From Anaerolineales bacterium (lineage in GTDB: Bacteria > Chloroflexota > Anaerolineae > Anaerolineales > Villigracilaceae), in contig CP129481.1 in assembly GCA_030583905.1 (NCBI GenBank), positions 2,260,136 to 2,324,135 on the forward strand: DNA of 64,000 nt, read 5' to 3'. Both the position numbers and the translations under genes were made by a program. The stretch's first letter is position 1; every line of letters starts with the position of its first letter. This document shows, piece after piece, positions 957 to 63,999 of the stretch. The notes below the pieces were generated by a model, which saw only the letters and a list, made by a program, of their open reading frames with translations, did not search any database and had not been told where the DNA came from.

Positions 957-975
957 AAGGGAACTTCGGTTCTTC

Positions 976-9784: not shown

Positions 9785-9935
9785 GGAGTGGTCCTCAATT
9801 TGTATGATTTTTGTATAATAATTGTCTAAATTCTTGCGGGCTGACTGGTTACAAGGTAAAATGAAAACATACCCAAGTTATGGGTAATTATACGCTACAC
9901 TAAAAGTAAATCATCCCAACCAAGGAGAGACACTC

Positions 9936-10538
9936 ATGGCTTTTGAACTTCCCAAGCTCGCTTATGCATACGACGCCCTCGAGCCGCACATCGATGCGCG
10001 CACGATGGAGATCCATCACACCAAGCACCACCAGACCTATATTACCAACCTGAACAACGCCGTGGAAAAGACGCCCGAACTGCAGGGCAAATCGCTCGAA
10101 GAACTGCTGGGCGGCATCAACTCGCTTCCCGAGGCTGTGCGCGGCGTGGTCCGCAATCATGGCGGCGGCACGCACAACCACAATTTGTTCTGGGAGATCA
10201 TGGGTCCCAACGCCGGCGGCGCTCCCTCCGGTGATCTTGCCAAGGCGATCGACGCCTCCTTCAAATCCTTTGACGACTTCAAAGCGGAATTCACCGCCGC
10301 CGCGACCACGCGCTTCGGCTCCGGCTGGGCATGGCTCGTCAAAAAGGGTAGCGGACTCGCCGTGATCTCGACCGCCAATCAGGATTCACCCCTGATGGAC
10401 GGCTTGACTCCCATCCTCGGCATCGACGTGTGGGAACACGCCTACTATCTCAACTACCAGAACCGCCGTCCCGATTACATCACCGCCTTCTGGAACGTCA
10501 TCAACTGGGATGCGGTCGCCGCGAAGTTCTCGGCGTAA
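9936..10538 (+). CDS. sodA: Superoxide dismutase, Mn-type signature
   Basis: [37 protein letters not shown]. Confidence 0.97.
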
Positions 10539-10560
10539 GTTTACACATCGAACAGAACGG

Positions 10561-10605
10561 AATGGTCTGACCGGTCACATACATGACCGGTCAGACCATT
10601 TTTTT
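10561..10605 (+). terminator. Rho-independent terminator after sodA
   Basis: AATGGTCTGACCGGTCA-loop-TGACCGGTCAGACCATT followed by a T run. Confidence 0.85.
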
Positions 10606-10708
10606 AAACCGCCATCCCTTATGACGTTTTGCACCTTGCCACGTTGATAAAGGACGTTATAATAGAACCGTCGCGTTTGATTAAAACCTCACAAGGAGAA
10701 AAAATCCT

Positions 10709-11122
10709 ATGACCCACATTATCACCAGTTTGTGTATTCGTGACCGCGGTTGCATTGAAGTATGCCCGGTCGAATGTATCATCCCCGGTCAGCCGGTTGC
10801 CGAATGGCCCTGGATGTACATCGACCCCGACACCTGCATTGACTGCGGCGCGTGCGTGCCGGAATGCCCGTATTCCGCGATCTTCCCCGAAGATGAAGTC
10901 CCCGCCGCATACACCGCCAAAGGCGGCGAGTATATCAGCAAGGTCGGTCTTACCGGTCACTACGAAGGCACCAACCATCACGGCAAGCAGGTTGTGCTCG
11001 AAACCACTCGGCAGCTTGAAGCTGGTGAAGTGTTGGACCTCACCGCCGACATCAAACCCAATTACGATTTCTTCCAGGGCGGTCCCGGTTACTCCGCCAA
11101 GGACAGCGACGACGGCATGTAA
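10709..11122 (+). CDS. Ferredoxin (7Fe/dicluster type) with C-terminal extension
   Basis: C..D..C.EVCPVECI and YIDPD.CIDCGAC.PECP. Confidence 0.9.
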   Translation: MTHIITSLCIRDRGCIEVCPVECIIPGQPVAEWPWMYIDPDTCIDCGACVPECPYSAIFPEDEVPAAYTAKGGEYISKVGLTGHYEGTNHHGKQVVLETTRQLEAGEVLDLTADIKPNYDFFQGGPGYSAKDSDDGM

Positions 11123-11132
11123 TTCGCCAAAT

Positions 11133-11165
11133 AAAAAGGTCGGGCACATGTGCCCGACCTTTTTT
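11133..11165. terminator. Bidirectional terminator
   Basis: Perfect 32-bp palindrome AAAAAGGTCGGGCACA|TGTGCCCGACCTTTTT between convergent genes. Confidence 0.85.
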
Positions 11166-11173
11166 GATTCCTG

Positions 11174-37023: not shown

Positions 37024-37153
37024 CAGGAGGGGGGTGGGAAGGCGGGACAGAGGGGCGCACACTGGCGCATGGGATGCGTTGCAGGATGGTGGAAATTCAT
37101 TAAAAGACGGGTTTTCACCGTATAATTGCGCCATCTAGATTATGAGGTGGGCT

Positions 37154-39910
37154 TTGCGCCGAATTAGTGAGGATACAACCCGCAAGGAAATGATCGACCC
37201 GCAGTTGGAAAGGGCGGGTTGGTATCTTGCTGACCATTCCAGGGTAAAGACCGAAATCCCTGTGGACGGCTACGATGCCGAGCCGTGGAATGGAATTTCG
37301 GATTACACGCTATACCGCGAAAATGGGGAAGTATTAGCGGTGGTCGAAGCCAAGAAGACATCGGTTGACGTCCGCCTGGCAGAAGCACAACTCACGCATT
37401 ATGTGACTGAAATTGAAAAACACCAGAGTTTCCGTCCGTTCGGCTTTTTAGCCAACGGACTGGAAATCCATTTTGTGGATGTAGGAGTTGCTCCCAAGCG
37501 GGAAGTGTTCGGATTCTTCACGCGCGAAGATTTGGAGAACCTGCTCTACATTCGTCAGAATGCGGTGCCGTTGAGTTCGGTTGAAATCAATAATCAAATT
37601 GTTGACCGTTCCTACCAGCACGAAGCCATCCGCCGCGTGGGCGAAGCCTTCGCCAATGGCAAGCGCAAAGCCCTGATCGTCATGGCGACAGGGACAGGCA
37701 AGACGCGTACCACAATGGGCTTGATAGATGTATTCATGCGGGCGGATCAGGCGAAGAAAATCTTATTCGTAGCGGACCGTGACGCACTCGTGGAACAAGC
37801 CATTGACGATGGTTTCCAAAAATATCTTCCAACGGAACCATGTACACGCTTGCACAGTTGGAAAGTGGAAACCAGCCAGCGCCTGTACGCGGTGACGTTG
37901 CAAACGCTGAGCAATATCTTCGAGCAGTTCTCGCCTGCCTTCTTTGACTTGATCGTCTTCGATGAAGTCCATCGCTCGATCTACAACAAATTCAACGAAG
38001 TGCTGGAGTATTTCGATGCCCGCCAGGTGGGATTGACCGCCACGCCCGCCAATTACATCAACCGCGACACCTTTCTTGCCTTCGATTGCACGGATGGCAA
38101 GCCGACCTATCTTTACACCTACGAACAAGCCATCGAAGACAAGTATCTCGTGGATTATGAACTCTACGCCGCGCGGACCAAGTTCCAGCGGCAGGGCATT
38201 CACGGCGTGGACTTAACCGAAGAGGAACGCAACGCCCTGATCGAAAAGGGACTTGACCCCGACGACATCAATTACGAAGGCACAGAACTGGAAAAGGAAG
38301 TCAGTAACCGCGATACGCTTCGTAAACAGTGGGAAGAGATTTGGGACGTGTGCCGAAAAGATTCGTCGGGACAATTGCCAGGCAAGACCATCGTCTTTGC
38401 GATGACACAAGACCACGCCTTGCGTTTGCAGGATGCGTTTTATGAGATGTATCCGCAATTCCCAGACTTGGCGAAGGTCATCACGCATAAATCGGAATAT
38501 CGCGGCACATTGGTGGAAGCGTTCAAGAAGAAGGATTTCCCGCGCATTGCTATTTCCGTGGACATGCTCGATACGGGCATTGATATTCCCGAAGCCGTCA
38601 ATCTGGTGTTCATGAAGCCTGTGCAATCGCCCATCAAGTTACAGCAGATGATCGGGCGCGGGACGCGCGTGCAGGCGGCGTGCAGAAATCTGGCGTTACT
38701 GCCGAACTTCGAGAAGAAGGATTTTCTCATCATTGACTTCTGGGAGAACAATTTCAGCAGGGATGCCAAGGAAGTCGTTGACCAATCTACGCCTGTGCTG
38801 GTGACGATCTTCAACACACGTTTGAAATTGTTGGAGACCTATCTCAAAGACCAGAAAGACCCCGATTGTAAGCAAGTGATCGCTGACCTGCGCGAGCAGA
38901 TTCAGGGCATCCCAACCGACTCGTTTACCATCCGCAAGCATATGCCAGAGATCGAAGAAGCATGGACAGATGCCTTCTGGGACTATCTCATCCCCAGCAA
39001 GATCGAATTCTTGAAATTGAAAGTCGCCCCGCACCTGCGACTCGTCCCTGGCGTGGACGTTGCTGCGGCGACCTTCATCAGCAAAGTGGAACGGTTGAAA
39101 CTACTCAAACGCACAGGCAGGGAAACCAGTGGAACGATTCAATCCATCGTAGAAGATGCCCAGAGTTTGCGCGATACGATTTTGTCTGACGCGGAAATCA
39201 AAGCCAAGAGCATGTGCGTTCCTGAAAAATTGGTGGAGTTCTCGAACAACGAATTGGACCTGCTTCGAGATGTGCTTTCACCGTGTATGAAGAACAAAAT
39301 ACGGTATGACTCTTTCCTGGAACTCGATCTACTGGATTCCATTGCGGTCAGCGGCTACATTTTGCTCACCAAGAGCGGAGAGAAAATGTACGTGGCGGAA
39401 TATCGCCGTTTGGTGGAAGAGCGCATTTTGCAATTGGTGGCGAACCACCCCACAATAAAGGCAATTCAAAACAGTTATGGTAGGGGCGAAGCATTGCTTC
39501 GCCCTTACATCGACGACTGGCAACTGCTCGAACTCGAACGCACACTGACCAAAGAACTCGGCGAAGGCGACCTGGAAGTGACGCCAGAAAACTTGAAGAA
39601 GGTTTTCGCTCACACCGCCGATAGTTTTCTCGGCTTGGTGCGCCAGGTGCTGGACATGCAGTACCTGCCCGATTACAAGGATTTGGTGGCGCGGCAGTTT
39701 GAAACCTATGTGACCCAACACAACTACAACGCTGACCAGATTCGCTTCTTGCGCGCGGTGCAAAGCGTGTTCTTGCAAAAGCGCCACCTCGAAACTGCCG
39801 ACCTATACGAGCCGCCGTTGGATATGTTTGGCGCGGACGCGGTGGAGCGGTGGTTTACGGAGAAGGAAGTGGAAGAAGTGGTTGAGTTTGCAAATAAGAT
39901 GGCGGTATAG
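37154..39910 (+). CDS. hsdR: Type I restriction endonuclease subunit R (EcoAI/EcoEI-like)
   Basis: Nuclease DY.L...AVVEAKK, MATGTGKT, DEVHRS, GLTATP, VDMLDTG.D, QMIGRGTR, EcoEI_R_C-like tail; TTG start after gaggtg (the track starts at 37142). Confidence 0.93.
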   Translation: MRRISEDTTRKEMIDPQLERAGWYLADHSRVKTEIPVDGYDAEPWNGISDYTLYRENGEVLAVVEAKKTSVDVRLAEAQLTHYVTEIEKHQSFRPFGFLANGLEIHFVDVGVAPKREVFGFFTREDLENLLYIRQNAVPLSSVEINNQIVDRSYQHEAIRRVGEAFANGKRKALIVMATGTGKTRTTMGLIDVFMRADQAKKILFVADRDALVEQAIDDGFQKYLPTEPCTRLHSWKVETSQRLYAVTLQTLSNIFEQFSPAFFDLIVFDEVHRSIYNKFNEVLEYFDARQVGLTATPANYINRDTFLAFDCTDGKPTYLYTYEQAIEDKYLVDYELYAARTKFQRQGIHGVDLTEEERNALIEKGLDPDDINYEGTELEKEVSNRDTLRKQWEEIWDVCRKDSSGQLPGKTIVFAMTQDHALRLQDAFYEMYPQFPDLAKVITHKSEYRGTLVEAFKKKDFPRIAISVDMLDTGIDIPEAVNLVFMKPVQSPIKLQQMIGRGTRVQAACRNLALLPNFEKKDFLIIDFWENNFSRDAKEVVDQSTPVLVTIFNTRLKLLETYLKDQKDPDCKQVIADLREQIQGIPTDSFTIRKHMPEIEEAWTDAFWDYLIPSKIEFLKLKVAPHLRLVPGVDVAAATFISKVERLKLLKRTGRETSGTIQSIVEDAQSLRDTILSDAEIKAKSMCVPEKLVEFSNNELDLLRDVLSPCMKNKIRYDSFLELDLLDSIAVSGYILLTKSGEKMYVAEYRRLVEERILQLVANHPTIKAIQNSYGRGEALLRPYIDDWQLLELERTLTKELGEGDLEVTPENLKKVFAHTADSFLGLVRQVLDMQYLPDYKDLVARQFETYVTQHNYNADQIRFLRAVQSVFLQKRHLETADLYEPPLDMFGADAVERWFTEKEVEEVVEFANKMAV

Positions 39911-39916
39911 ATTGCG

Positions 39917-42871
39917 ATGAAGAAAAAAGCCTTGCCCCTAACCCTTGTTCTCATTGGCGCAGCGTTATTGATAACGACTGTGGTCTTTTGGATTGATTCG
40001 AGCACAACCACCGAGCCGCAGAGTTTCGGGAAAACTTTACTCGACTGGGTAACACTCATTGCTGGGCTTGGGGCAAGTATCAAAGGTTGGATGGATTTAT
40101 TTAAGCCTGATAAACCAAAACCACCGACCACGAAAATTGAAGTGAAAGGCGAAAGATCGCAAGTTTCTACTGGCGATAATTCCCCAAATATTCAAACTGA
40201 GACTTACATCGGCACTCAGATTGTTCAACAACCATCAGAGCCAAAAACGCCAAGGTCTCTAAACCAATTACCTTCGCCACCTTTGGATTTTATTGGACGG
40301 GAAAAAGAATTAGCCCAACTTCGCCAGAACATTGAAAAAGGAGTGGTAATTTCAGGTGTTCAAGGTATGGGCGGAATTGGCAAAACTGCACTTGGTTTGA
40401 AACTCGCTGAACAAATTTCACCCAATTATCCAGATGGGCAAATATATCTTGACTTGCGCGGCGCGCATGAGCAGACACCACTTACACCTGAACAAGTTAT
40501 GGCGCACCTGATTCGGAGTTTTCACCCTGAAACCGCTTTACCGCTTGATTTTGGGGAATTAGGCGCAATGTATCGATCTGTGCTAAGCGGTAAGAAAGCA
40601 TTGCTTTTTTACGATAATGCACGTGACGAAAAACAGTTGGATTCATTGTTGCCCCCCAGAGGGTGTACTTTATTTGTCACTTCACGTCAGTACTTTACCT
40701 TGCCTGGACTTGTGGCAATTGACCTGGAGACTCTAGACTCCAAAGACGCAGTTGAATTGGTACAAGAAATATCGTCAAGAGTTAATAATAAAGACGCTGA
40801 AACGCTTGCGAAACTATGCGGTTACCTGCCGCTGGCGATTCGCGCGGCTGTGAGCGTTTTGCCCAGAAGACCCGATTGGTCTCCCACCGAATTGATAAAA
40901 CGGCTGAGTGATAGCAGGGCAAGATTGGGGCTGGTTGAAAGTTCGCTGAGTTTAAGTTACGACGCCCTTGATTCCGAATTACAAAAATATCTGCGCCAAC
41001 TTGGAGTGTTTGCTGCACCCTTTGACAAAGCAGCAATTCTGGCGGTGTGGTTTGATGAAAGAGATTTGCGCTTGCGACAATTAGGGTTGACATTAAGCTC
41101 ATCATCAGGCACAGATGATGAAATTGTCAATAAAAAATCGCCCGAACGGGAAGCAGATGATATTCTCGGTGAGTTATTAAAGACCAGCCTGTTGAAATAC
41201 GATCAAAACACAAATGAATATTATTTTCATGACCTGACACATATATTTCTTGAGGAAAAGGTTCGGCAAGACGAAAATTCTGATGATGTTTTATGGCGAT
41301 ATGCACAGCACTATTTGAAACTTGCAAGCCAGGCTGATGACGATTATCGAAAAGGCGAAGGACAATATCTTGTTGCTATTGCCCGTTTTCGACAATTGTG
41401 GTTACATGTCAATAAAATATCTGAAAGATTATCAATCGAATCAAATTGGAAAAAGCCAATTTCGGCTGAACGATGGTTGGAAAGATCTGCTTACACAGTT
41501 AGTGAAATGCTCACTATTGGCTTAACGCCAAATAACTATATCTCTTATGTCCAACGGAGTCTTAACGCTTCAAGACGAAACAAAAACCAAGAAGTAGAAA
41601 GTTACAATTTGAATAAACTGGGTCTCGCCTACTCCGCCTTGGGGGATGCGCGCAAAGCGATTGAGTACTACGAGCAGGCGCTTGCCATTGCCCGCGACAT
41701 CGGCGATAGAAAGAGCGAAGGCGGTATTCTTGGCAACGTGGGTCTCGCCTACTCCGCCTTGGGGGATGCGCGCAAAGCGATTGAGTACTACGAGCAGGCG
41801 CTTGCCATTGCCCGCGACATCGGCGATAGAAAAACGGAAGGAATGTTTCTTGGCAACGTGGGTCTCGCCTACTCCGCCTTGGGGGATGCGCGCAAAGCGA
41901 TTGAGTACTACGAGCAGGCGCTTGCCATTGCCCGCGACATCGGCGATAGAAAGAGCGAAGGCGGTATTCTTGGCAACGTGGGTGGAGCCTACTCCGCCTT
42001 GGGGGATGCGCGCAAAGCGATTGAGTACTACGAGCAGGCGCTTGCCATTGCCCGCGACATCGGCGATAGAAAAACGGAAGGAATGTTTCTTGGCAACGTG
42101 GGTCTCGCCTACTCCGCCTTGGGGGATGCGCGCAAAGCGATTGAGTACTACGAGCAGGCGCTTGCCATTGCCCGCGACATCGGCGATAGAAAAACGGAAG
42201 GAATGTTTCTTGGCAACGTGGGTGGAGCCTACTCCGCCTTGGGGGATGCGCGCAAAGCGATTGAGTACTACGAGCAGGCGCTTGCCATTGCCCGCGACAT
42301 CGGCGATAGAAAGAGCGAAGGCGGTATTCTTGGCAACGTGGGTGGAGCCTACTCCGCCTTGGGGGATGCGCGCAAAGCGATTGAGTACTACGAGCAGGCG
42401 CTTGCCATTGCCCGCGACATCGGCGATAGACGAAGTGAGAGTTTTTTTGTCAGTAATTTAGGGGCAATAAATCGAACACTTGGTAATCTTGATATTGCTT
42501 TGGATTTTCTAAAACAAGGTCTGGAGATTTCAAAAGAGGTTGGTGATAGGCACGGGGAAGGTGCAGATTGGGATAATCTTGCCAACGTTTATGCTGATAA
42601 GCAGGATTATGAGAATGCGCTCATTGCCTACAAAAATGCTATGGACATCTCTAGAGAAGTTGGCGATCCATCTCTGGAAGCCAATATCGCCTGGAACGTT
42701 GCTACAATTTACTATGAAAAAGAACAGTATGAAATGGCATGTAAATATATGCAAATCACGGTTGACTTTGAGAATAAGATAAATCATCCAAATGCAAATA
42801 CAGACTTGGAAGCCTTGAATAAGGTACGCGCTAAAATTCAGAATATAACCAAGCCCGAGGAACTGAATTAA
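39917..42871 (+). CDS. NB-ARC/STAND NTPase with N-terminal hydrophobic helices and C-terminal TPR array (NLR-like)
   Basis: FIGREKEL, GMGGIGKT, LLFYDNA, LFVTSR, CGYLPLAI, SL.LSY..L, MHD-like FHDL; 40-aa TPR repeats. Confidence 0.9.
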   Translation: MKKKALPLTLVLIGAALLITTVVFWIDSSTTTEPQSFGKTLLDWVTLIAGLGASIKGWMDLFKPDKPKPPTTKIEVKGERSQVSTGDNSPNIQTETYIGTQIVQQPSEPKTPRSLNQLPSPPLDFIGREKELAQLRQNIEKGVVISGVQGMGGIGKTALGLKLAEQISPNYPDGQIYLDLRGAHEQTPLTPEQVMAHLIRSFHPETALPLDFGELGAMYRSVLSGKKALLFYDNARDEKQLDSLLPPRGCTLFVTSRQYFTLPGLVAIDLETLDSKDAVELVQEISSRVNNKDAETLAKLCGYLPLAIRAAVSVLPRRPDWSPTELIKRLSDSRARLGLVESSLSLSYDALDSELQKYLRQLGVFAAPFDKAAILAVWFDERDLRLRQLGLTLSSSSGTDDEIVNKKSPEREADDILGELLKTSLLKYDQNTNEYYFHDLTHIFLEEKVRQDENSDDVLWRYAQHYLKLASQADDDYRKGEGQYLVAIARFRQLWLHVNKISERLSIESNWKKPISAERWLERSAYTVSEMLTIGLTPNNYISYVQRSLNASRRNKNQEVESYNLNKLGLAYSALGDARKAIEYYEQALAIARDIGDRKSEGGILGNVGLAYSALGDARKAIEYYEQALAIARDIGDRKTEGMFLGNVGLAYSALGDARKAIEYYEQALAIARDIGDRKSEGGILGNVGGAYSALGDARKAIEYYEQALAIARDIGDRKTEGMFLGNVGLAYSALGDARKAIEYYEQALAIARDIGDRKTEGMFLGNVGGAYSALGDARKAIEYYEQALAIARDIGDRKSEGGILGNVGGAYSALGDARKAIEYYEQALAIARDIGDRRSESFFVSNLGAINRTLGNLDIALDFLKQGLEISKEVGDRHGEGADWDNLANVYADKQDYENALIAYKNAMDISREVGDPSLEANIAWNVATIYYEKEQYEMACKYMQITVDFENKINHPNANTDLEALNKVRAKIQNITKPEELN
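41621..42430 (+). repeat. 120-bp tandem repeat x7 encoding TPRs
   Basis: Lines at 41641, 41761, 41881, 42001, 42121, 42241 and 42361 are identical; variation is confined to two sites. Confidence 0.97.
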
Positions 42872-44670
42872 TGCTCACCGACCCTAAACTCCGCAGCCAA
42901 GTAGACGCCCTCTGGGATAAGTTCTGGACGGGTGGATTGACGAACCCGCTCGATGCGATCGAGCAGTTTTCGTATTTGTTGTTCCTCAAGCGGTTGGATG
43001 ACCGCGAGAACGCGGCGGAAAGACAGGCAAAACGCAAGGGGACGACGTATCAGCCCAACGTTAAGAAAGAGATGCGTTGGAGCGTCTGGAAGCAGATGAA
43101 GGCGGAAGAGATGCTCAAGCATCTTAAGTCGGTCGTCTTCCCGCAGTTGGCGAGTCTCACTGATGAAGCATCATCATTTGGTATCTACATGCGCGGGGCG
43201 GAGTGCAAGATCAATAAGCCGAGTCTGCTGGTGGAGGCGGTGAACCTGATCGACCAGATGGAGATCAGCCAGCAAAATCAGGATGTGCAGGGCGACCTGT
43301 TCGAGTACCTGCTGAGTCATTTGAGCATCGCCGGGCGCAATGGACAGTTCCGCACGCCGCGTCACATCATCCGCATGATGGTGCAGATGCTCGACCCCAA
43401 GCCGCGTGAACGCATCGGCGACCTGGCGGCGGGCACGGGCGGATTTTTGATCAACGCGCACCAGTATATTTTGGAGAAGGCGACGTCGAAGAACATCCTT
43501 GAATTCGATGCGGACGGCAGCGCACATCATCTGATCGGCGACCTGCTGAAGGATGACGAGCGCAAGTTCATGAATAGCAAAAAATATCTGCGCGGCTTCG
43601 ACAACGACTCAGGCATGACCATGCTGCGCATCGGCTCGATGAACCTGATGTTGCACGGCATTCAGGAGCCGCAGTTCTTTTACATGGACACGCTCTCCAA
43701 GGGCTATGGGGAGGTGGGCGAGTACGATGTCATTTTGATGAACCCGCCCTTCAAAGGCGCGGTGGACAAAGGCGACGTGCATCCCGACCTGCCCAGCGAT
43801 ACGACCAAGAGCGAGTTGCTCTTTTTGCATTTGATTTTGCGCGCGCTCGATATGGGCGGACGCGCGGCGGTGATCGTGCCCGATGGCGTGCTGTTCGGGT
43901 CGAGCCGCGCCCATGTGGAACTGCGCAAACGCCTCATCGAAGAGAATCGGCTGGACGGCGTGGTCTCGATGCCTTCGGGCGTCTTCAAGCCCTACGCGGG
44001 CGTCAGCACGGCGGTGCTGTTCTTCACGCGCGGCGCACAGACGAAAAACATTTGGTTCTATGACATGGCGCACGATGGTTTTTCGCTGGATGATAAGCGG
44101 ACAAAAGTGGATGAGAACGACATCCCCGATATTTTGGATTGTTGGAAGAAGCGGGGGGATAAGAAGTTCATAGAGAGTAGAGAACAGAGAATCGTGGAGT
44201 TGCGGAAGGAGTTGACTCCGTTGAAGGAAAAGAGATTGAAGTTGCAAGCGGAAGTCAACCGCCTCACGTTCGAACTGGCAATTGCCCCTGTTTCTGACGG
44301 CTCTTCTGCCCCGCAACCTGTCACCGCAGAGACGCGGAGCGACGCAGAGAAAACCAAAGAAAAACTCGGCGCTCTCGGCGTCTCCGCGGTCAATGCTCTT
44401 GCTGATGCGCAAGAACAACTCTCTACTCTCCAATCTCTACTCTCTTCTCCGCAAGGGGAACTCGACCGCCTGACCCGCCAATTCTGGGTGACCAAGGAGC
44501 AGGTCAAGGCGAACAAGTACGATCTCTCTGCCAGCCGTTACCGCCAAGTGGAAGCGGACGCGGCGTATCACGAACAGCCGTCTGTGACGCTGGAACGTTT
44601 GGCGCGGTTGGAGAGTGTGATGTTGGATGAAATTGCGGAATTGAAGAAAACGATGAAGGCTGAAGGATGA
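42871..44670 (+). CDS. hsdM: Type I R-M methyltransferase subunit M
   Basis: GQFRTPRHII, DLAAGTGGF (motif I), NPPF (motif IV), VPDGVLF, FKPYAGVST, YDLS..RY. Confidence 0.95.
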   Translation: MLTDPKLRSQVDALWDKFWTGGLTNPLDAIEQFSYLLFLKRLDDRENAAERQAKRKGTTYQPNVKKEMRWSVWKQMKAEEMLKHLKSVVFPQLASLTDEASSFGIYMRGAECKINKPSLLVEAVNLIDQMEISQQNQDVQGDLFEYLLSHLSIAGRNGQFRTPRHIIRMMVQMLDPKPRERIGDLAAGTGGFLINAHQYILEKATSKNILEFDADGSAHHLIGDLLKDDERKFMNSKKYLRGFDNDSGMTMLRIGSMNLMLHGIQEPQFFYMDTLSKGYGEVGEYDVILMNPPFKGAVDKGDVHPDLPSDTTKSELLFLHLILRALDMGGRAAVIVPDGVLFGSSRAHVELRKRLIEENRLDGVVSMPSGVFKPYAGVSTAVLFFTRGAQTKNIWFYDMAHDGFSLDDKRTKVDENDIPDILDCWKKRGDKKFIESREQRIVELRKELTPLKEKRLKLQAEVNRLTFELAIAPVSDGSSAPQPVTAETRSDAEKTKEKLGALGVSAVNALADAQEQLSTLQSLLSSPQGELDRLTRQFWVTKEQVKANKYDLSASRYRQVEADAAYHEQPSVTLERLARLESVMLDEIAELKKTMKAEG

Positions 44671-45857
44671 ATATGAATCAGCCATTCGTTGAGTTGCAAG
44701 AAGTTTGTCGGTTTATCAGCGGCGGAACGCCAAGCACAAAAGTTCCTGAATATTTCATGGGAACGATTCCTTGGATTACTGGCGCAGATATGAACGGCAA
44801 CGTGATAACTAAAGCGCGACAATACATTACCGAAGAAGCAATTCAGAACTCGGCAACAAATATTGTTCCAAAAGGAAATATCTTGCTTGTCACTCGCACT
44901 GGTGTTGGCAAAGTTGCCATTGCTGGTGTTGATATTTGCATAAGCCAAGATTTTACGGGATTGGAACTCGACAAAACAAAAGTAGATGAATGGTTCTTGC
45001 TCTATTATTTGCGCTCTCAAGAAGAAGCCCTTACTTCTCAACAGCGTGGTGCGACCATTCAAGGAATTACAAGAGATGTAGTTGAAACTCTAAAACTTCC
45101 CCTGCCCCCGCTGACCGAGCAAAAGCGGATTGCGTCCCTACTGGCGCGGGCTGACCGTCTCCGCTCCCTGCGGCGGACAGCGCACGATCTCGGCGAGTCC
45201 CTGCTCCAGTCCGTGTTTTTGGAGATGTTTGGGGATGAACAAAAGCAAAACTATGTAACGATTCAAGAGTTGATGGACTCAGAAGTCATTATTGATATGC
45301 AAGACGGAAATCATGGTGGTGACTATCCAAGAACATCAGAATTTGTTTCTGAAGGCATACCATTTCTAACTGCAACTAATGTAATTGGCAACCGAGTTTT
45401 TCTTGACGCTGCTCCTAGATTGAAACCAGAAAGAGCGCATAAATTACGAATTGGTTGGGTAAAGCCAAATGATGTTTTGCTGTCTCATAACGCTACAGTT
45501 GGACGTGTTGCTATCATGCCATACTTTGAAGGCGAAGTTGTACTTGGCACATCATTAACTTATTACAGATTAAATCCTGAAATTCTTTTACCCCGATATT
45601 TTTCTGGTCTTTTGCAGTCAAGGCATTTTCAATCCCAACTTGAAAGTTTTATGGGGCAAACAACGCGCAATCAAGTTCCAATAACTCGCCAAAGGGAATT
45701 GTTTGTTCCTGTTCCGCCACCGCTGAATCTGCAAGAAGAGTTTGCGGGCATGGTGGCGCGGGTCGAGTCGCTGCGGGGGAGGATGTCCGAGGCGGGGAGG
45801 CAGGTCGAGGGGTTGTTTGAGAGTCTGTTGGCGAAGAGCTTCGGAGGAGGAAGGTAA
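44667..45857 (+). CDS. hsdS: Type I R-M specificity subunit S
   Basis: TRD1 (GGTPST..PEYF.G.IPWI), central PLPPLTEQKRI, TRD2, terminal PPPLNLQEEF...LFESLL. Confidence 0.93.
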   Translation: MNMNQPFVELQEVCRFISGGTPSTKVPEYFMGTIPWITGADMNGNVITKARQYITEEAIQNSATNIVPKGNILLVTRTGVGKVAIAGVDICISQDFTGLELDKTKVDEWFLLYYLRSQEEALTSQQRGATIQGITRDVVETLKLPLPPLTEQKRIASLLARADRLRSLRRTAHDLGESLLQSVFLEMFGDEQKQNYVTIQELMDSEVIIDMQDGNHGGDYPRTSEFVSEGIPFLTATNVIGNRVFLDAAPRLKPERAHKLRIGWVKPNDVLLSHNATVGRVAIMPYFEGEVVLGTSLTYYRLNPEILLPRYFSGLLQSRHFQSQLESFMGQTTRNQVPITRQRELFVPVPPPLNLQEEFAGMVARVESLRGRMSEAGRQVEGLFESLLAKSFGGGR

Positions 45858-45860
45858 AGA

Positions 45861-46976
45861 ATGCCATTCGAAACTGCTCGTGTCGCGTTGTTAGGTGAGT
45901 TAGCTGTCGTAATCTCTGGATATTCGCCAAAACCAAGCGAAAGACAAAGGGTTGGAAAATATCTATTACTAGGTGGACGAAATATTGGTGATAGAAGGAT
46001 ATCTTTAACTGTCAAAGATTCTTATATTGAAGATGTAGATAAAGTCAGTTTTCGAAGCGCTATAGCCCGAGCAGGTGATATTATCGTTTCAACACTTTTT
46101 AAAGATCGAAAAATTTATTTTTTCAGAGAAAGTGACCTACCATCTGTAGTCAATAATAGCTGCAAAATAATTAGAGCAACAGCGAACAATGATTATATTC
46201 TGTCATATTTGAGAACTGAGAAAGGACAAAAACAATTTCTTTCGGATGCAGATAATACTGCTAAGGGAGCCTTGATTCCATTCATATCCACAAAAGATAT
46301 TCTAAATATTGAAATACCAATCTTGCCTTTTGAAGAACTACAGCATTTGGGTGATAGCTACATTCAAAATGCTACTTTAGATGATTTGGTTGTAATTCGT
46401 GATGAACTCAAGAGCAAAGAGAAAGAAGTGGCAGTACTTCAAAGTAGACTGACTGATATAACGACTTATTACGAAGACAGATTAAAGAAAGTAGAAACGC
46501 GAATAACAAATTTAGAGTCTATTCCAATAGTTGAGAGACCATTAAAAGTGTTTTTATGCCATTCAAGTTCAGATAAGCCTTATGTTAGGAATCTATATGA
46601 AAATTTAACCGAATTACCAAATGTTGATCCTTGGTTGGATGAAAAAAAACTCTTACCAGGTGATGATTGGCAATTGGAAATCGAAAATGCAGTAAGAACA
46701 TCTGACGTTGTTCTTGTGTGTCTATCCAAAATGTCAACAACCAAAGAGGGATTTGTTCAAAAAGAAATAAAATACGCTTTGGATGTTGCTGAAGAAAAAC
46801 CACCAGGCACCATCTTCATTGTCCCCTTGAAAATAGAAGAATGCTTAGTTCCCAAACGACTTAACCAATTTCAATGGCTTGATTATTTTGCTGATGATGC
46901 AAATGAAAAGCTACTCAAATCTCTTGAAAAACGTGCTCGAACATTGGGAATTGAGTTTAGATATGAAAGCAGATAA
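45861..46976 (+). CDS. HsdS-like TRD fused via a coiled coil to a C-terminal TIR domain
   Basis: N-terminal LGEL..ISG..P...RNI...GDIIVS...DYILSYL...GALIPFIS.KDI.NIEIP..P; C-terminal KVFLCHSSSDK..V..LY..L...DPWLD..KLLPG.DW..EI..AVR.SDVV.VCLS......GFVQKEI. Confidence 0.85.
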   Translation: MPFETARVALLGELAVVISGYSPKPSERQRVGKYLLLGGRNIGDRRISLTVKDSYIEDVDKVSFRSAIARAGDIIVSTLFKDRKIYFFRESDLPSVVNNSCKIIRATANNDYILSYLRTEKGQKQFLSDADNTAKGALIPFISTKDILNIEIPILPFEELQHLGDSYIQNATLDDLVVIRDELKSKEKEVAVLQSRLTDITTYYEDRLKKVETRITNLESIPIVERPLKVFLCHSSSDKPYVRNLYENLTELPNVDPWLDEKKLLPGDDWQLEIENAVRTSDVVLVCLSKMSTTKEGFVQKEIKYALDVAEEKPPGTIFIVPLKIEECLVPKRLNQFQWLDYFADDANEKLLKSLEKRARTLGIEFRYESR

Positions 46977-47152
46977 TCTTTTTGTATTTATTTACCATAC
47001 TCTGCAAGAAGAGTTTGCGGGTGTGGTAGCACGGTCGAGTCGCTACGTGGGCGGATGTCCGAGGGCGGGAAGCAGGTCAAGAGGTTGTTTGAGTCCCTGC
47101 TGGCGGAGTGTTTTGGAATAACATAATTGTCGTAACTATATAGGAGGCTGAA

Positions 47153-48028
47153 ATGAGTATTTTTGATTTCATCGGTAATTTATTTTTTATCCTGTTGGGA
47201 ACAATTTTTCAATTATTCGTGGAAAAATTCAAAGGTAAGCAGAAATTTGTTAGTTGGTTATCCTTTGTACTTATAAGTGTTGGGATGTTTTGGCTCGGAT
47301 TGGAAATAGGCACAAAAGGTTCTTTTGAACTCGTTAGTGATAGTGGACGGAAAAACGTTGAGATTTCTGTACCAATGACAAATTGGGATGTAAACGGTGA
47401 GACCATAGGAAATTCAATTTTAGGCAACAACTCTCATCACGGGGAATTTGAATTATCTTCTGTTCAAGCGGAAAATTCTTACACAAGACCTGAGCAACAG
47501 TTGATATATTCTTGGGATTCCTTAGGCGCCTTTATTGAGCTAAATGGGATGCCCTTGCGTGGAGTTCAGTCTGTTATTTCAATCTTCCCCGTAGAAACAA
47601 AGTACTATGCTGAAAAAGTGTTTTGTCACTATACAGCAAAATATGATGGACGATATTACTCAAGTGTTGAACAGTATATCCCTTTTCGTCAGCCTGTAAT
47701 TATGATCTGGGACTTTACTGGAAGTGTTGACCCATCTGCTTTTGACATAACAGAAGAAGATCGAGCTTATCTAGAAAATTCAATTGACCTCCTTCATCAA
47801 AAAGGCTCAAGTTTTACTTATTATACGAGAAGACTTAGAGAACTTTGGCAATGGCAGGAATTAGTTGCAAACAGTTATGACCCAAACACAGTAGAGAAAC
47901 TTATTGTCACCTGTAATACTTCAGCAACAAAAGAATATCGTGGTGGCAATACAGGTGATCGATTTGTGTTCAGAGGTGAGTTTAATTTCGGTGACGTTAT
48001 AGTTTATCCGTATGAACAAGTAAAATGA
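47153..48028 (+). CDS. Hypothetical protein with two N-terminal TM segments
   Basis: AT-rich 291-aa ORF, RBS aggagg, lies between hsdS-tail copies. Confidence 0.75.
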   Translation: MSIFDFIGNLFFILLGTIFQLFVEKFKGKQKFVSWLSFVLISVGMFWLGLEIGTKGSFELVSDSGRKNVEISVPMTNWDVNGETIGNSILGNNSHHGEFELSSVQAENSYTRPEQQLIYSWDSLGAFIELNGMPLRGVQSVISIFPVETKYYAEKVFCHYTAKYDGRYYSSVEQYIPFRQPVIMIWDFTGSVDPSAFDITEEDRAYLENSIDLLHQKGSSFTYYTRRLRELWQWQELVANSYDPNTVEKLIVTCNTSATKEYRGGNTGDRFVFRGEFNFGDVIVYPYEQVK

Positions 48029-48369
48029 AGTCCTTCTTACAAGAAGAGTTTATGTGTACGGTGGCGCGAGACGAGTCGCTGCGGGGCGGATGTCCGAGGG
48101 CGAGAGGCAGGCGCCGTGTCGAGTTCATCGAGACATCGAGGGGTTGTTTGAGTCCCTGCTGACGCAATCTTTTGACGGTAGACGATGGATGACGGAAAAC
48201 TACTCTCTACTCTCGAATATCTAATCTCTGCTCTTGCGGGCGTGGTGGCGACCGAAGGGAGTGTCGAGTCGCTGCGAGGGAGGATGGGCGAGTCCACGAG
48301 GCAGGTCGAGGGGTTGTTTGAGTCATTGCTGAGTGAGAGTTTTGGAACATAAAAACAAAGGAGAAAATC

Positions 48370-48666: not shown

Positions 48667-48851
48667 CGATTATGCAGGATGAGTTTGCGGGCGTGGTGGC
48701 GACCGAAGGGAGTGTCGAGTCCCTGCGGGGGAGGAATAGCATCCCCTTTGGGGACTCGGCGTTTGAGCCTCGCGAGGCGAGGAGGCAGGTGGAGAATCTT
48801 TTCGAGTCATTACTTGCTCAATCATTTGCAGCAGGATAAGGAGTTGAGAAC

Positions 48852-51045: not shown

Positions 51046-51378
51046 GAGGTGGGCTGTTGCGCCGAATTAGTGAGGATACAATCCGCAAGCGGATGATCGA
51101 CCCGCAGTTGGAAAGGACGGGTTGGTATTTGCGCGACTTCTCAAATGGGGAAATTATTGGGTGGTAATTTTATGATTACATTGTTCAGTACGATAACCCT
51201 TGTTAGTTTCGCTTCCTGTGCGCCGTGCCAAGTATGTTCTTGCAGAAGCGCCATCTCGAGACCACCGACTTATACGAACCGCTCTTGGACATGTTTGGCA
51301 CGGATGCAGCGGCGCGGTGTTTTACGGAGAAGGGGTGTAAGAAATGGTGGAGTTTGCTAACCGATTGGCGATTCAATA
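51046..51378 (+). pseudogene. hsdR: Internally deleted hsdR remnant (5' about 90 bp joined to 3' about 200 bp)
   Basis: 51046-51130 matches 37144-37225 (GCGCCGAATTAGTGAGGATACA...ATGATCGACCCGCAGTTGGAAAGG); 51207-51370 matches 39743-39905 with frameshifts. Confidence 0.88.
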
Positions 51379-51429
51379 ATTTTGAGCCATTACACCGATT
51401 CGATTGCCACGAGATGAAAAGGAGACAAA

Positions 51430-53043
51430 ATGAATGGCAAAATTAGCTTCATTCCAAATGCAGATTTGGGCAGATATCTTCAATCCCTTGACTCTGTGCG
51501 ATTCCTTGAATCAAATGAGATTGCTTGTAATGTCCAAGCAAAATTAGAAATTTTTACGTCTTTGATGTTAGGTAGAACTATCCCTGTCGGTGAGCACCAG
51601 TTCATTGATTCGTACGGGCTTCTGTCGAATGCGTATCACATGATTAAAGCCTTAGATAAGTTGCCAAAAACAGATCGCTCCCAAATTGAACATATATTTC
51701 CTTTTCAACTTTATTTCCGAGGCGAATATAAGACCATAGATGGTTTGATTGCCGCAAAACTGGGCGACCCTAATTACAAACTTTCTTTGTGGCGTTATTT
51801 AAGCAAACCTGATGACCAAAAAATGCTAGATAATCGCCAAAAGATAAAGGCAAAAGTGGAAGATGGTACTTTTAAGTACGAGGATGACGATCTCGTGCCA
51901 AACAAAGATTATGATGCAGCAAAAATGCTTCACAAAGTTCGAAATCACTTCTTTCACGGCGAAAGAGAGCAAATCTACACACTCTACGGTTCTAAGACAA
52001 TTGGGATTGCACCTTACATTGGGCTTCTTGAAGCAGGAATTTCGAGGATTAGTAATCTGACTAGAAAGGATTTGAACAGTCAGATTAAACATCAAGCAAA
52101 GCTAATGGATAAGGGAATAATTGCCACAGAGATACTCGATCCTAAGTTAAAAGAAATAGCCGTTGAACTAATCATGATTCTGAGGCAACTAAAGAAACTT
52201 GGATTGATGACGGGAAATCGCTCTAATATCCGAATCGGTAATGCGAGAATTAGGTCACGGGGGAAAGAAAAAATTCAAAAGTTCAGAGAGATTGTAAACA
52301 ATGATCTAATGTATGACGCCATACTTGAAATTTTTGATTTGCTTTACAATAGTTCAATTGCTAAATCGTGTTTTGCACATAGCGAAAGTGTTTCATCAGC
52401 TCGGAGTATTACTGATAATCATTATGTCCAAGCGGCAATAGCACTTTCTACAATGGCAAAAAACGAGATTACCGATCAGGCAGACTTGAAAGGGAATTAC
52501 TTTAACCCGCCCTGGATACAAGATTTTACGTTCAACCTAAACGTGCCTTCCGAGGCAAAACTTATGCTTGATTCTATGCCATGGGAGCGTGTTTGGGAGG
52601 CGTTTTTGGATACAAAATGGCGAGATACTGTTTCTAATTTAAACGGTATTCTCTTGAAATGGGACAAATTTATCAATGACCCAACTACATCTGAACAAGA
52701 ATATATGGATGTGACCTACGAGTTGGATTATGCTTACGATGCACATATAGACAATATAAGCAGGATTCTTAAAGAGTCAGGGTGGAATTTTGTTAAAAAC
52801 CAGAAAACCAACCAAACCATAATTAAGTTTTTACCTTGGGTAGGTGGGTTAGCTACTAAGGCAGTAGCAAAGATTGCTCTTGATCGCGTTGGCATAGATC
52901 CATTTTGGGAGGAAACAATACCAGATTCAATTGGTACCGCAACGGGAATTGGCATAAATAAAACTATCGAACCTGTTGGCAAATGGATAACTAAAGGTTA
53001 CATTAGAAAGACATTTGCCCGCTTGGTTTTGCCAGAAAAATAA
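51430..53043 (+). CDS. Hypothetical 537-aa protein
   Basis: Long AT-rich ORF with RBS aaggag; no family recognised. Confidence 0.85.
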   Translation: MNGKISFIPNADLGRYLQSLDSVRFLESNEIACNVQAKLEIFTSLMLGRTIPVGEHQFIDSYGLLSNAYHMIKALDKLPKTDRSQIEHIFPFQLYFRGEYKTIDGLIAAKLGDPNYKLSLWRYLSKPDDQKMLDNRQKIKAKVEDGTFKYEDDDLVPNKDYDAAKMLHKVRNHFFHGEREQIYTLYGSKTIGIAPYIGLLEAGISRISNLTRKDLNSQIKHQAKLMDKGIIATEILDPKLKEIAVELIMILRQLKKLGLMTGNRSNIRIGNARIRSRGKEKIQKFREIVNNDLMYDAILEIFDLLYNSSIAKSCFAHSESVSSARSITDNHYVQAAIALSTMAKNEITDQADLKGNYFNPPWIQDFTFNLNVPSEAKLMLDSMPWERVWEAFLDTKWRDTVSNLNGILLKWDKFINDPTTSEQEYMDVTYELDYAYDAHIDNISRILKESGWNFVKNQKTNQTIIKFLPWVGGLATKAVAKIALDRVGIDPFWEETIPDSIGTATGIGINKTIEPVGKWITKGYIRKTFARLVLPEK

Positions 53044-53079
53044 GAATTTTTCAATACAAATACGGAAGAAGGATATGTC

Positions 53080-53757
53080 ATGAATTACTATGAGCTGCTT
53101 AGCAAATTCCCAAATCTTATCGGCGATAATGATGCCTTAATAAAGATCGTGCAAGAACCTGATGCTATCAAGGACTGGCAAGAACAGCGCCAAAAAGAAC
53201 TTGCCAGTAAAAACCTTCCGCAAAATTGGGCTGATATTGGTGTCGTATTTCATGATCCGTATTTTTTCGTTGTCCGTGACTTGGTTCAATTTCCTAATGG
53301 ACGTTTGAATGGTTATTGTCGTGTTCTAAGTGAAGCTAATCTGAGCGGAGGGCATGGGGCGGTTGTTTTGCCTGAATACGAAGGTAAAGTAATGTTGTTA
53401 CACCAGTATCGCCATCCAACGCGTAAATGGCACTATGAAGTTCCGCGTGGATATGGCGAATTGAACACTCCTGCTGAAGAAAATGCCCGAAAGGAAGTTG
53501 AAGAAGAAACAGGTGGAACAATTGAAAAGCTTGTGAATTTAGGGGAGTTCTATAATAATACTGGTTTTGAGGGTGGAGCGGTTTCGTTGTTTTATGCCAA
53601 GTTGTCATCCATAGGCCAGCCAAACGAAGATGAAGGCATTGAGTCCTTCGTCTGGCTCACTGTCAAAGAACTCGAAGAATGGATAGCCAACGAGAAGATC
53701 ACCGATGGCTTTACCATTGCCGCGTACACCAAAGCCAAACTCAAAGGATTGATCTAG
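53080..53757 (+). CDS. NUDIX hydrolase (ADP-ribose pyrophosphatase-like) with N-terminal extension
   Basis: HQYRHP..KW.YEVPRG, NUDIX box GYGE...AEENARKEVEEETG, I.DGFTIAA. Confidence 0.9.
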   Translation: MNYYELLSKFPNLIGDNDALIKIVQEPDAIKDWQEQRQKELASKNLPQNWADIGVVFHDPYFFVVRDLVQFPNGRLNGYCRVLSEANLSGGHGAVVLPEYEGKVMLLHQYRHPTRKWHYEVPRGYGELNTPAEENARKEVEEETGGTIEKLVNLGEFYNNTGFEGGAVSLFYAKLSSIGQPNEDEGIESFVWLTVKELEEWIANEKITDGFTIAAYTKAKLKGLI

Positions 53758-63378: not shown

Positions 63379-63999
63379 TTAATGGACTATCTTCTGTAGC
63401 GCCAACTCAATAGCCTGTTCCAATTCCATGGATCGCCCGGTTTTCCATGCTGATGTCGCGGCCGATTCCGGCAGGGATTTGCGCGCGGGAGCGATCATCC
63501 GTTCAACGCGTGCCTGCTCGGATGGCGGAAGTGGGGCGCCGATCGAATCGCGCAGGGCGGATGAAAAACCAGCTAGTTTCAAAGCCAGTTCCAGTTTGGA
63601 TTCTGCGGCTGCCAATCCGCCATAATCTTCAAGCAGGTAAGCAATGGCTGTCTTATCTCCCAGCTCGCGGCTGATCATTAAACTTTCATCGAGAACAGAG
63701 CGGACATCCGCAAACTCGCCCTCATCCAGCATGACATCTGCCAGGGTGTTAAGAGAGAGAGCCAGTCCGGCTTTATCGCCCAGTTGCCGGCGGATCATCA
63801 AGCTTTCGTGAAGCAGCCGACGCGCTTCGGCATATTCCATCTGGTCGCTGGCAACACATGCCTGATTATTTAGCAGCTGTCCGACTGCCCAGCGATCTCC
63901 TATTTTTCGGAATAGAATCAGGCTTTCCTCGTTCATCTGCCAGGCGGCGGCGAGGTCTCTTTGGAAGCGGGCGATAATGCCAAGGTTGTTAAGGAGCGT
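63379..63999 (-). CDS. TPR-repeat protein C-terminus (ATPase/MalT-like regulator type); partial, runs off the right edge
   Basis: Frame is open from 63999 (TLLNNLGIIAR...); 40-aa repeats ESL.I.R.LGD; typical tail AAW..G..M.LEQAI.LAL. Confidence 0.8.
   Translation of the reverse strand, partial: TLLNNLGIIARFQRDLAAAWQMNEESLILFRKIGDRWAVGQLLNNQACVASDQMEYAEARRLLHESLMIRRQLGDKAGLALSLNTLADVMLDEGEFADVRSVLDESLMISRELGDKTAIAYLLEDYGGLAAAESKLELALKLAGFSSALRDSIGAPLPPSEQARVERMIAPARKSLPESAATSAWKTGRSMELEQAIELALQKIVH

Follow-up and report, generated by a model that had tools for sequence, protein, structure and literature searches.

The window analyzed here is a stretch of 64,000 nucleotides from an Anaerolineales bacterium (Chloroflexota; assembly GCA_030583905.1, contig CP129481.1, positions 2,260,136 to 2,324,135 of the forward strand). 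Between the hsdR and hsdM genes of a type I restriction-modification (R-M) operon it carries an open reading frame (ORF), 39917-42871 (+), which from its first start to its stop encodes a 984-aa protein of the STAND class (signal transduction ATPases with numerous domains), similar to nucleotide-binding oligomerization domain-like receptors (NLRs). At about even odds, the gene is read here as an autonomous NLR-like abortive-infection receptor, in which a membrane module would act as the effector and which is carried as cargo in the R-M slot. The gene, its parts and the basis of each assignment are listed below.

39917..42871, + strand: NLR-like STAND gene, 984 aa, with a two-helix membrane module, a motif, an NB-ARC domain and a tetratricopeptide repeat (TPR) array (domain matches; orthologues of 64-86% identity in Chloroflexota/Anaerolineales metagenome-assembled genomes, MAGs)
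39929..40003, + strand: helix 1, aa 5-29, strongly hydrophobic predicted transmembrane (TM) helix after KKK (Kyte-Doolittle maximum 2.53; Eisenberg mean hydrophobicity <H> 0.83, moment muH 0.09; AlphaFold2 helix 5-29)
40025..40099, + strand: helix 2, aa 37-61, weakly hydrophobic and Gly-rich, GxGxSIKGWxDLF, then KPDKPKPP (Kyte-Doolittle maximum 1.22; <H> 0.52, muH 0.27; AlphaFold2 helix 37-61)
40133..40228, + strand: candidate signaling motif rich in Q, N, G and I, aa 73-104, KIEVKGERSQVSTGDNSPNIQTETYIGTQIVQ (motif hidden Markov model, HMM, E 3.5e-15; predicted local distance difference test, pLDDT, <50 for aa 63-112)
40259..41566, + strand: NB-ARC NTPase with winged-helix and helical domains, aa 115-550, with the lead-in LNQLPSPPLDFIGRE (Pfam, NCBIfam, motifs, AlphaFold2, Foldseek)
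41591..42790, + strand: TPR array, ten 40-aa units, aa 559-958 (TPR_12, E 9e-103, 10 stretches)
41619..42430, + strand: near-perfect tandem repeat, 120 bp x 6.8, GC 0.59 (Tandem Repeats Finder; DNA laid in register)

Domain architecture of the STAND protein

The central NTPase was assigned to the NB-ARC (AP-ATPase) clade of STAND NTPases by motif, profile and fold alike. The Pfam family PF00931 (NB-ARC) was matched with 26.1 bits (cut-off 23.5), and the AfsR NB-ARC region of NCBIfam with an E value of 1.5e-47. The motifs follow one another in the expected order (P-loop GMGGIGKT, aa 150-157; Walker B LLFYDNA, aa 229-235; TSR, aa 255-257; GYLPLA as GLPL, aa 302-307; FHD as MHD, aa 437-439), and their columns are invariant in 64 homologues. 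The AlphaFold2 model of aa 1-550 has a mean pLDDT of 85, with most of the NTPase above 90. Its best Foldseek matches were Apaf-1 (1z6t, E 1e-13), tomato NRC1, ZAR1, Sr35, CED-4 and an archaeal STAND-TPR protein, with Avs3 at rank 35. Homologues with about 35-48% identity carry TIR, DUF4062, other TM hairpins or short Gly-rich motifs in the same N-terminal place. This exchange of N-termini fits the STAND/NLR logic claimed in the original prediction, an earlier reading of the DNA letters without database searches; its likening of the protein to Avs did not hold, as the PADLOC Avs models gave no match. In the PADLOC-DB v2.0 screen, no Avs, bNACHT or other defense model was matched, and the hits were limited to generic TPR models, C3a156 and PDC-S39, all in the TPR region; nor is the protein among the candidate (PDC) families of PADLOC-DB v2, except via generic TPRs. 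A bNACHT identity was rejected, there being no PF05729 match and the NTPase being NB-ARC. The predicted order of hydrophobic N-terminus, NB-ARC and TPR was recovered in all three parts, but the conserved motif between hairpin and NB-ARC had been overlooked.

The Kyte-Doolittle segments of the N-terminal module cover aa 6-26 and aa 40-62. Helix 1 (Kyte-Doolittle 2.5) stands out as a clear predicted TM helix, and two TM helices are probable. The earlier claim of a two-TM N-terminus is thus borne out for helix 1 and less firmly for helix 2, which is marginally hydrophobic (1.2, the usual TM threshold being 1.6) though conserved and predicted helical (AlphaFold2 pLDDT 56-64). Residues G50, G52, K56, G57, W58 and D60 of helix 2 are invariant down to 37% overall identity. 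Basic residues stand ahead of helix 1 (MKKK) and behind helix 2 (KPDKPKPP), and the loop between them is acidic and rich in Ser/Thr. A hairpin with both termini inside (N-in/C-in) and a cytoplasmic ATPase fits this pattern, because basic ends flank the helices and an ATP-dependent NB-ARC requires the cytoplasm. A basic start followed by a hydrophobic stretch is also what a cleaved signal peptide would offer, and the protein would then be exported. The chance of this appears close to negligible: the stretch of about 21 residues exceeds the usual length of a Sec h-region, it is succeeded by a conserved second helix and then by basic residues, and the rest of the chain is an ATP-dependent switch that needs the cytoplasm.

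The ratio of nonsynonymous to synonymous substitution rates (dN/dS) of aa 1-135 against five orthologues was 0.05-0.11, a low range that includes lineages without R-M; HsdR gave 0.10-0.11 and the NB-ARC part 0.12-0.20, all these values being rough with dS near saturation (0.4-2.0). A profile of aa 1-110, compared with 1.84 billion representative proteins, retrieved only 116 clusters (78 at E <=1e-10), in which the module, a rare one by this count, is always N-terminal. Among the 35 long members, it is fused to NB-ARC (16), NACHT (7), nSTAND1 (3), nSTAND3 (3), TIR (2) and histidine-kinase ATPase (2). Since its partners span many NTPase types as well as TIR and kinases, the module is interpreted from these alignments as a shuffled N-terminal cassette. 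The window module had no family match in Pfam (E up to 10), NCBIfam, PHROGs or PADLOC, and no relative was found when IMG/VR was scanned with it. Two candidate identities were rejected. For a phage holin (superfamily III), no profile match was above threshold (the relatives P0152 and P0145 reached about 20 bits to Phage_holin_3_6, PF07332, below the cut-off of 28.4), and the NCBI name 'phage holin family protein' of one relative was not reproduced. For a Bell/Babybell/HeLo-like domain, judged by the published description, the module family starts with M-(x)-K-K and a 20-aa hydrophobic helix and has no acidic residue at position 2-3.

At the other end of the protein, seven TPR units share an 87-bp core that is 100% identical in DNA (seven exact matches, 0 expected). 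Variation across the repeats is confined to two cassettes, AAGAGCGAAGGCGGTATT versus AAAACGGAAGGAATGTTT (KSEGGI/KTEGMF) and CTC versus GGA (L/G), which occur in differing combinations. We place the resulting four variable residues per unit in TPR helix A, following the general TPR pattern rather than a computed structure. Helix A generally lines the concave, ligand-binding face of such arrays. Close orthologues have 1 (P0003), 2 (P0001), 3 (P0004) or 7 units; P0003 and P0004 are identical apart from unit number, and both alleles of the cassettes are found again among these orthologues. In orthologues further removed, the TPRs are of the ordinary, divergent kind. The unitig depth in one run (core 347, flanks 46-49) corresponds to about seven copies, and two other runs gave lower ratios. 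The 120-bp unit is 100% identical between the window (41619-42430) and the related locus L001 (11922-12232), whereas the flanking gene sequence is only about 85% identical. This difference, together with the GC content of the unit (0.59, versus 0.43 in the remainder of the gene), suggests recent transfer, exchange or gene conversion of repeat units. Highly identical, unit-shuffling repeats are a known trait of fungal and bacterial NLRs (10.1101/2020.01.06.895854).

Split and fused forms of the motif and the proposed mode of action

The region between hairpin and NTPase is disordered in the AlphaFold2 monomer model (aa 63-112). It consists of a Pro-rich linker followed by the motif, with the consensus ~GGxPQIsTGdHARNIQtETYIEnQ. 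Over 12 instances, the motif is composed of I (13%), Q (12%), N (10%), T (9%) and G (9%), with little L (0.8%), P (2.3%) and K (4.4%), a composition that matches the published description of BASS motifs (10.1101/2020.01.06.895854). Many of the proteins matched by the module profile are short, and two complete ORFs consist only of two helices and the motif, P0219 (122 aa) and P0198 (105 aa, free-standing inside its contig, L172). L173 and L174 represent one contig recovered from two samples. Here an NB-ARC-TPR gene begins 21 nt downstream of the P0219 gene, and its first 45 residues include the motif. The motif lies at aa 88-116 of the 122-aa protein and at aa 14-43 of the downstream NLR (motif HMM E 1.1e-11 and 6.5e-11), and over 33 aa the copies share 48% identity and 76% similarity. 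A second pair, in L015 (Chloroflexia MAG), consists of a 383-aa protein with a helical domain, the motif and TIR_2, located 23 nt upstream of a motif-NB-ARC-TPR gene (8790-12136); the motif is found at aa 171-200 of the TIR protein and aa 16-47 of the NLR (E 1.8e-15 and 4.7e-16).

In these relatives, therefore, the effector C-terminus and the NLR N-terminus share a motif, and the layout of L173 and L015 is recognized as the gene-pair signature of NLR-associated amyloid signaling. The window has a single chain, which is accordingly classed, by its domain order, as a fused, motif-retaining form of the effector/NLR pair. The motif HMM was run against 14,862 ORFs (176 loci and the window) and found nothing beyond the L015 and L173/L174 pairs and the N-termini of family members. 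The L173 arrangement, a 122-aa module-and-motif protein 21 nt upstream of a motif-bearing NLR, lends support to the membrane-disrupting effector proposed in the original prediction, while the TIR and histidine kinase fusions of the module leave room for an anchoring role.

Some further observations concern the same protein families. Just upstream of the L015 pair, a pentapeptide-repeat-like protein with a TIR-like C-terminus is encoded at 7725-8786. Five small module proteins (P0182, P0155, P0169, P0201 and P0229) end in a different motif (~SPDAEQxMxGxGG...SPxSKQTME). No claim is made for this second C-terminal motif as a pairing signal: in L176 (6001-8500) the neighboring NTPase gene is frameshifted, and the stretch that resembles the motif falls between Walker A and Walker B. 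The 168-aa free-standing module protein of L073 was also set aside as probably a frameshifted NLR.

On the proposed reading, the TPR array would bind an infection-derived ligand and thereby release the NB-ARC switch, leading to nucleotide exchange and oligomerization. Oligomerization would gather the N-terminal regions, and the motif (aa 73-104) would then assemble homotypically, probably in a cross-beta form. This assembly would drive the two-helix module (aa 1-62) into a membrane-damaging state, in which the infected cell would die or stop growing. Expressed probably on the operon transcript, the STAND protein would form a second line of defense.

Several points weigh against this reading. 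Helix 2 combines a hydrophobicity below the TM threshold with low AlphaFold2 confidence, and the module has no match to a known pore, holin or Bell family. Where it is fused to TIR or a kinase, the module has the look of an anchor or sensor, not of a killing part. The membrane module was found in a single independent split pair (L173/L174), and no described all-in-one NLR that keeps its motif was found, the described ones joining the effector directly to the NTPase. Amyloid (cross-beta) formation by the motif is putative. PADLOC has no model for the STAND protein. Metatranscriptome contigs were found on hsdR, on hsdM relatives and on a gene downstream of hsdS that joins a target-recognition domain (TRD) to TIR, and none on the STAND gene, which is uninformative on co-transcription.

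The main rival, conceivable though unlikely, is that the hairpin only tethers the receptor to the inner membrane face or senses a membrane event (e.g., phage DNA entry) and that the motif recruits motif-bearing effectors (TIR, small membrane proteins) from genes located elsewhere. Such an anchor or adaptor role would agree with the weak hydrophobicity of helix 2 and with the fusions of the module to TIR (P0123, P0166) and to a HisKA-HATPase kinase (P0148), in which it cannot be the sole output. The motif common to separate effector and NLR genes in L015 and L173 likewise indicates that it works in trans elsewhere. However, no other motif-bearing ORF of at least 45 aa was detected by the motif HMM in the 64-kb window. 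P0219 and P0198, being module and motif alone, would moreover be hard to explain unless the module is the output, as in Bab/Bell.

The hsdR/hsdM junction and its surroundings

The R-M genes flanking the STAND gene are listed below.

37142..39910, + strand: hsdR, type I restriction subunit, 922 aa, first gene of the operon (Pfam ResIII, Helicase_C, HSDR_N, EcoEI_R_C; PADLOC REase_I, E 2.7e-116)
42871..44670, + strand: hsdM (HsdM_N and N6_Mtase in Pfam and PADLOC)
44667..45857, + strand: hsdS with two target-recognition domains (two Methylase_S domains in Pfam and PADLOC)

Taken together, these genes are predicted to encode an intact, complete type I R-M system, and the STAND gene lies between them on the same strand. 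The hsdR stop codon (TAG) is followed by 6 nt (ATTGCG) and the STAND ATG at 39917, and the STAND stop codon (TAA) shares its final A with the hsdM ATG at 42871 (TAATG). Both boundaries are as first described, and both are covered by assembled unitigs in three independent sludge metagenome runs. The hsdM start is backed by an HsdM_N match from aa 7 and by orthologues aligning from aa 1, and its Shine-Dalgarno sequence (GAGGA) sits within the STAND 3' end. A perfect TATAAT occurs at 37121-37126, upstream of hsdR. Judging by the spacing, the STAND gene is probably co-transcribed with the operon and expressed from its transcript. Consensus scans for promoters and terminators gave no such site at either junction, and fewer sites overall than in shuffled sequences, so they are uninformative. 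RNA contigs with 0 mismatches map to hsdR. The GC content is 0.43 for STAND aa 1-567, 0.385 for the tail and 0.59 for the repeat array, compared with 0.52 for hsdR and 0.56 for hsdM. The gene had been called AT-rich, which is true outside the repeats but not of the array.

The contents of the same slot were surveyed in 80 metagenome loci (L090-L169; HsdM identity 62-95%); in 54 of them, the end of hsdR and the start of hsdM could both be located. The slot is filled with 200-7,400 bp in 43 of the 54 loci; the gap is 92 bp in one locus and 7-28 bp in the other ten, all with HsdM identity <=66%. The occupants form about 57 protein clusters. Among them are a Trypsin-NACHT-FGE-sulfatase protein, two more NACHT proteins, a HEPN-AAA_16-TPR protein (1,965 aa), KAP-NTPase-HEPN, bDLD1-LRR-Roc-COR-EAD7, caspase and CHAT proteins, SIR2 and TIR proteins, GmrSD, an AAA_15/AAA_21 ATPase followed by a UvrD-like helicase, and a NERD helicase. 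A DUF3800 pair (7 loci), PIN toxins (7 loci) and IS200 transposases (5 loci) recur. One of the two further NACHT proteins, in the slot of L130 (3008-7505), has 599 aa and carries the same module and motif as the STAND protein (48% identity over aa 3-105, E 1e-26). RNA contigs of related strains break exactly at the hsdM start and run into differing upstream sequence. By these comparisons, the hsdR/hsdM junction of this R-M lineage is classed as a general cargo hotspot. The operon strand carries 90 of the 102 slot ORFs, compared with 96.7% in the same orientation among genes nested in type I R-M, BREX and DISARM operons, a position that predicts a defense function (Payne et al. 2024, 10.1101/2024.01.29.577857).

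In L130, the NACHT protein is followed by a 903-aa protein without a Pfam match. IS200/Y1 transposases recur at the junction in L003 (9018-9596) and L006 (12621-13199), in both directly after the STAND orthologue, and in five other slots. Extra copies of the hsdR 3' end are present in L101, L106, L125, L126 and L134, which hints at recombination breakpoints at the ends of hsdR and hsdM that border the slot.

The defense-type character of the neighbors and of the slot cargo bears on another explanation, that the protein is a non-antiviral NLR (a kin-recognition or developmental death switch of filamentous Chloroflexota, or an AfsR/MalT-like regulator) that hitch-hikes in the R-M locus. Its closest curated matches are indeed regulatory STANDs (the AfsR region, as given above), and NB-ARC/TPR NLRs whose repeats are highly identical are characteristic of multicellular bacteria and of the genes for fungal allorecognition (10.1101/2020.01.06.895854). 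Little credence is given to this explanation, however: no DNA-binding or other regulatory output domain was found in the protein by Pfam, neighbors and cargo are overwhelmingly of defense type, and the tested relative in layout, Bab/Agp, is antiphage.

The 14 closest homologues (64-86% identity) were found in Chloroflexota/Anaerolineales MAGs and in wastewater, sludge and bioreactor samples. The order hsdR-STAND-hsdM is present in at least five related contigs with tight or overlapping boundaries. One of them, L009, reproduces the window layout exactly (hsdR, 9 nt, STAND, overlap, hsdM, hsdS), and in L003/L011 and L006/L007 an IS200 transposase lies between STAND and hsdM. Elsewhere the R-M system has decayed. 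In L001, hsdR is gutted. In L004/L010, at the same chromosomal site as the window (the same FAD-oxidase gene upstream), HsdR has shrunk to aa 6-70 and 863-922 and hsdM to its first 25 codons, and the STAND gene is intact (797 aa, dN/dS 0.10-0.16). In L008, where the gene sits in an integrase-bearing island, 18 nt upstream of STAND and 47 nt of hsdM downstream remain. Because the close orthologues keep the hsdR-X-hsdM position or its scars, all of them are taken to descend from an R-M-embedded ancestor, with the STAND gene outliving the R-M system. Members with 35-43% identity are solo genes (P0015 among transposases, P0024 beside housekeeping genes); tblastn with the window Hsd proteins found no R-M beside the distant family members, a search that would miss unrelated R-M families.

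These data also bear on whether the STAND protein guards its host operon in the manner of PrrC, firing when a phage anti-restriction protein disables the R-M system. The tight hsdR-STAND-hsdM order in the related contigs would suit a guard, and there is the precedent of PrrC, an abortive-infection gene that almost never occurs outside type I R-M loci (10.1101/2024.01.29.577857). Such a guard is nevertheless quite improbable: the STAND gene stays intact beside the R-M remnants of L004/L010 and the 47 nt of hsdM in L008, the 35-43% members are solo, unrelated clusters fill the same slot, and no PrrC-like ABC-ATPase or anticodon nuclease domain was detected by PADLOC or Pfam. For the same reasons (about 57 unrelated clusters in the slot, intact persistence under purifying selection where R-M has decayed, solo distant members), embedding as a specific R-M partnership, which is how we read the original prediction, was not borne out. 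On the favored reading, the STAND protein would stand outside the R-M machinery, as a non-subunit to which the operon supplies position and probably transcription but no function.

Several neighboring features of the window were recorded. Directly after hsdS, a 371-aa ORF (45861-46976, +; GC 0.35) joins a single HsdS-like TRD (aa ~5-200) to TIR_2 (aa 230-349, E 6e-25). It has only three close TRD-TIR homologues (75-95% identity); its TRD half shares 45-62% identity with a widespread family of ~375-aa proteins that have a TRD and PF04326 (AlbA_2/Schlafen-like), and its TIR is 60% identical to that of P0166, a bearer of the two-helix module. RNA contigs with 0 mismatches cover 46227-46498 of this ORF. 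The last ~40 codons of hsdS are repeated four times downstream of the operon (47019-47117, 48037-48185, 48233-48346 and 48672-48836), and L004 and L001 have such hsdS 3'-end repeats as well; their appearance is that of scars or recombination arms from successive cassette exchanges at this end of hsdS. Within the same AT-rich island, a 291-aa ORF (47153-48028, +; GC 0.37) had no Pfam, PADLOC or NCBIfam match and no relative among the fetched loci. At 51057-53757, a gutted hsdR (aa 5-33 joined to aa 841-912) precedes a 537-aa protein without a Pfam match and a 225-aa NUDIX protein (GC 0.43). This cargo is like that of the L096/L167 slot (500-aa protein and NUDIX) in size and Pfam content, not by sequence comparison, and the same hsdR deletion form occurs in L096. 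A TIR-like stretch at 705-971 (-) has 31% identity to the TRD-TIR protein, and a TPR-rich ORF at 63532-63996 (-), similar to the STAND TPRs, runs off the window end. The window may contain further defense genes.

Comparison with known systems and implications

The nearest tested system is Bab/Agp of E. coli ECOR25 (BASS11), an abortive-infection pair in which the 109-aa Bab shifts to the periphery of the cell and changes in the membranes are seen (Ibarlosa et al. 2024, 10.1101/2024.11.07.622273). Like the L173/L174 pair, it consists of a protein of ~110 aa, whose N-terminus is a hydrophobic helix domain and whose C-terminus bears a motif of ~20-25 aa, and of an adjacent sensor gene that starts with the motif. 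It shares with the window protein TPRs as the sensor and a proposed output of membrane targeting and abortive infection. In contrast, its sensor is TPR-GreA/B-C-PIN instead of an NB-ARC NTPase, and in the window protein the parts are fused into one chain, with the motif retained. The start also differs from that of Bell/Hell domains (MKK- here, 'MEPIS'-type there), and helix 2 has its own signature, GxGxSIKGWxDLF.

The Bell-BASS/BASS-NLR pairs (BASS1-10) of filamentous bacteria have an effector/NLR motif identity of 43-56% (Dyrka et al. 2020, 10.1101/2020.01.06.895854), and that of L173 is 48%. Common features are an NB-ARC and TPR NLR in a filamentous phylum, TPR units of very high internal identity, a motif of ~25-30 aa that is Q/N/G/I-rich and K/P/L-poor, and, in L015, TIR as an alternative motif-linked effector. 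The differences are that the module here is set apart from Bell by the described signature (acidic residue at 2-3) and that the window motif lies between effector and NTPase in one polypeptide. Bell domains in Chloroflexota were reported from the genus Chloroflexus only (10.1101/2020.01.06.895854).

The Avs/AVAST and bNACHT proteins (Avs1-7; PMC13581612, 10.1101/2022.07.19.500537) are similar in having an N-terminal effector, a STAND NTPase and a C-terminal repeat sensor, mostly TPR-like, in single-gene systems with swappable N-terminal domains. They differ in that their PADLOC models do not match the window protein, whose NTPase is of the Apaf-1/plant-R NB-ARC type (MHD motif), with Avs3 only at rank 35 of the fold search. 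In plant coiled-coil NLR (CC-NLR) resistosomes (ZAR1, Sr35, NRC), NB-ARC oligomerization gathers N-terminal helices to attack the membrane. The fold match of the NB-ARC to these plant NLRs has a Foldseek probability of 1.0; unlike theirs, the much shorter N-terminus of the window protein is predicted to sit in the membrane already at rest and leads into a disordered motif, and the sensor consists of TPRs instead of LRRs. Finally, PrrC/EcoprrI and other R-M-embedded genes (Payne et al. 2024, 10.1101/2024.01.29.577857) resemble the STAND gene in being nested on the same strand with minimal spacing. The STAND protein, in contrast, is without a PrrC-type domain and persists without R-M, contrary to what a PrrC-type guard predicts.

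NLR-like STAND proteins, defense genes embedded in R-M operons and amyloid-signaling pairs are already known kinds. What appears to be new here is the membrane module, the motif, the fused motif-retaining architecture, the occurrence in Anaerolineales-type Chloroflexota, the STAND-rich cargo at one junction and the clean two-cassette repeat. A wider interpretation is possible but doubtful, namely that aa 1-104 comprise two undescribed immune elements (a two-helix death module unrelated in sequence to Bell/HeLo, and a new prion-like motif in split and fused form), that the junction is an NLR-exchange hotspot and that TPR sensors are retuned by cassette shuffling. If this is true, fused motif-keeping receptors, once activated, could template further copies of themselves.

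To our knowledge, Bab/Agp is the only bacterial amyloid-signaling system experimentally tested so far, and we know of no experimental defense studies that include Chloroflexota. NLR-type receptors and cell death under amyloid control connect the immune systems of bacteria, fungi, plants and animals, and this locus offers a compact case with a different module and motif, in which matched split and fused forms let the roles of motif and module be separated. With their two binary cassettes and differing copy numbers, the identical TPR units are a clean case from nature of a sensor diversified through the shuffling of repeats. The hsdR/hsdM junction, as an exchange point for STAND and other immune genes, would be a practical place to mine for new systems.

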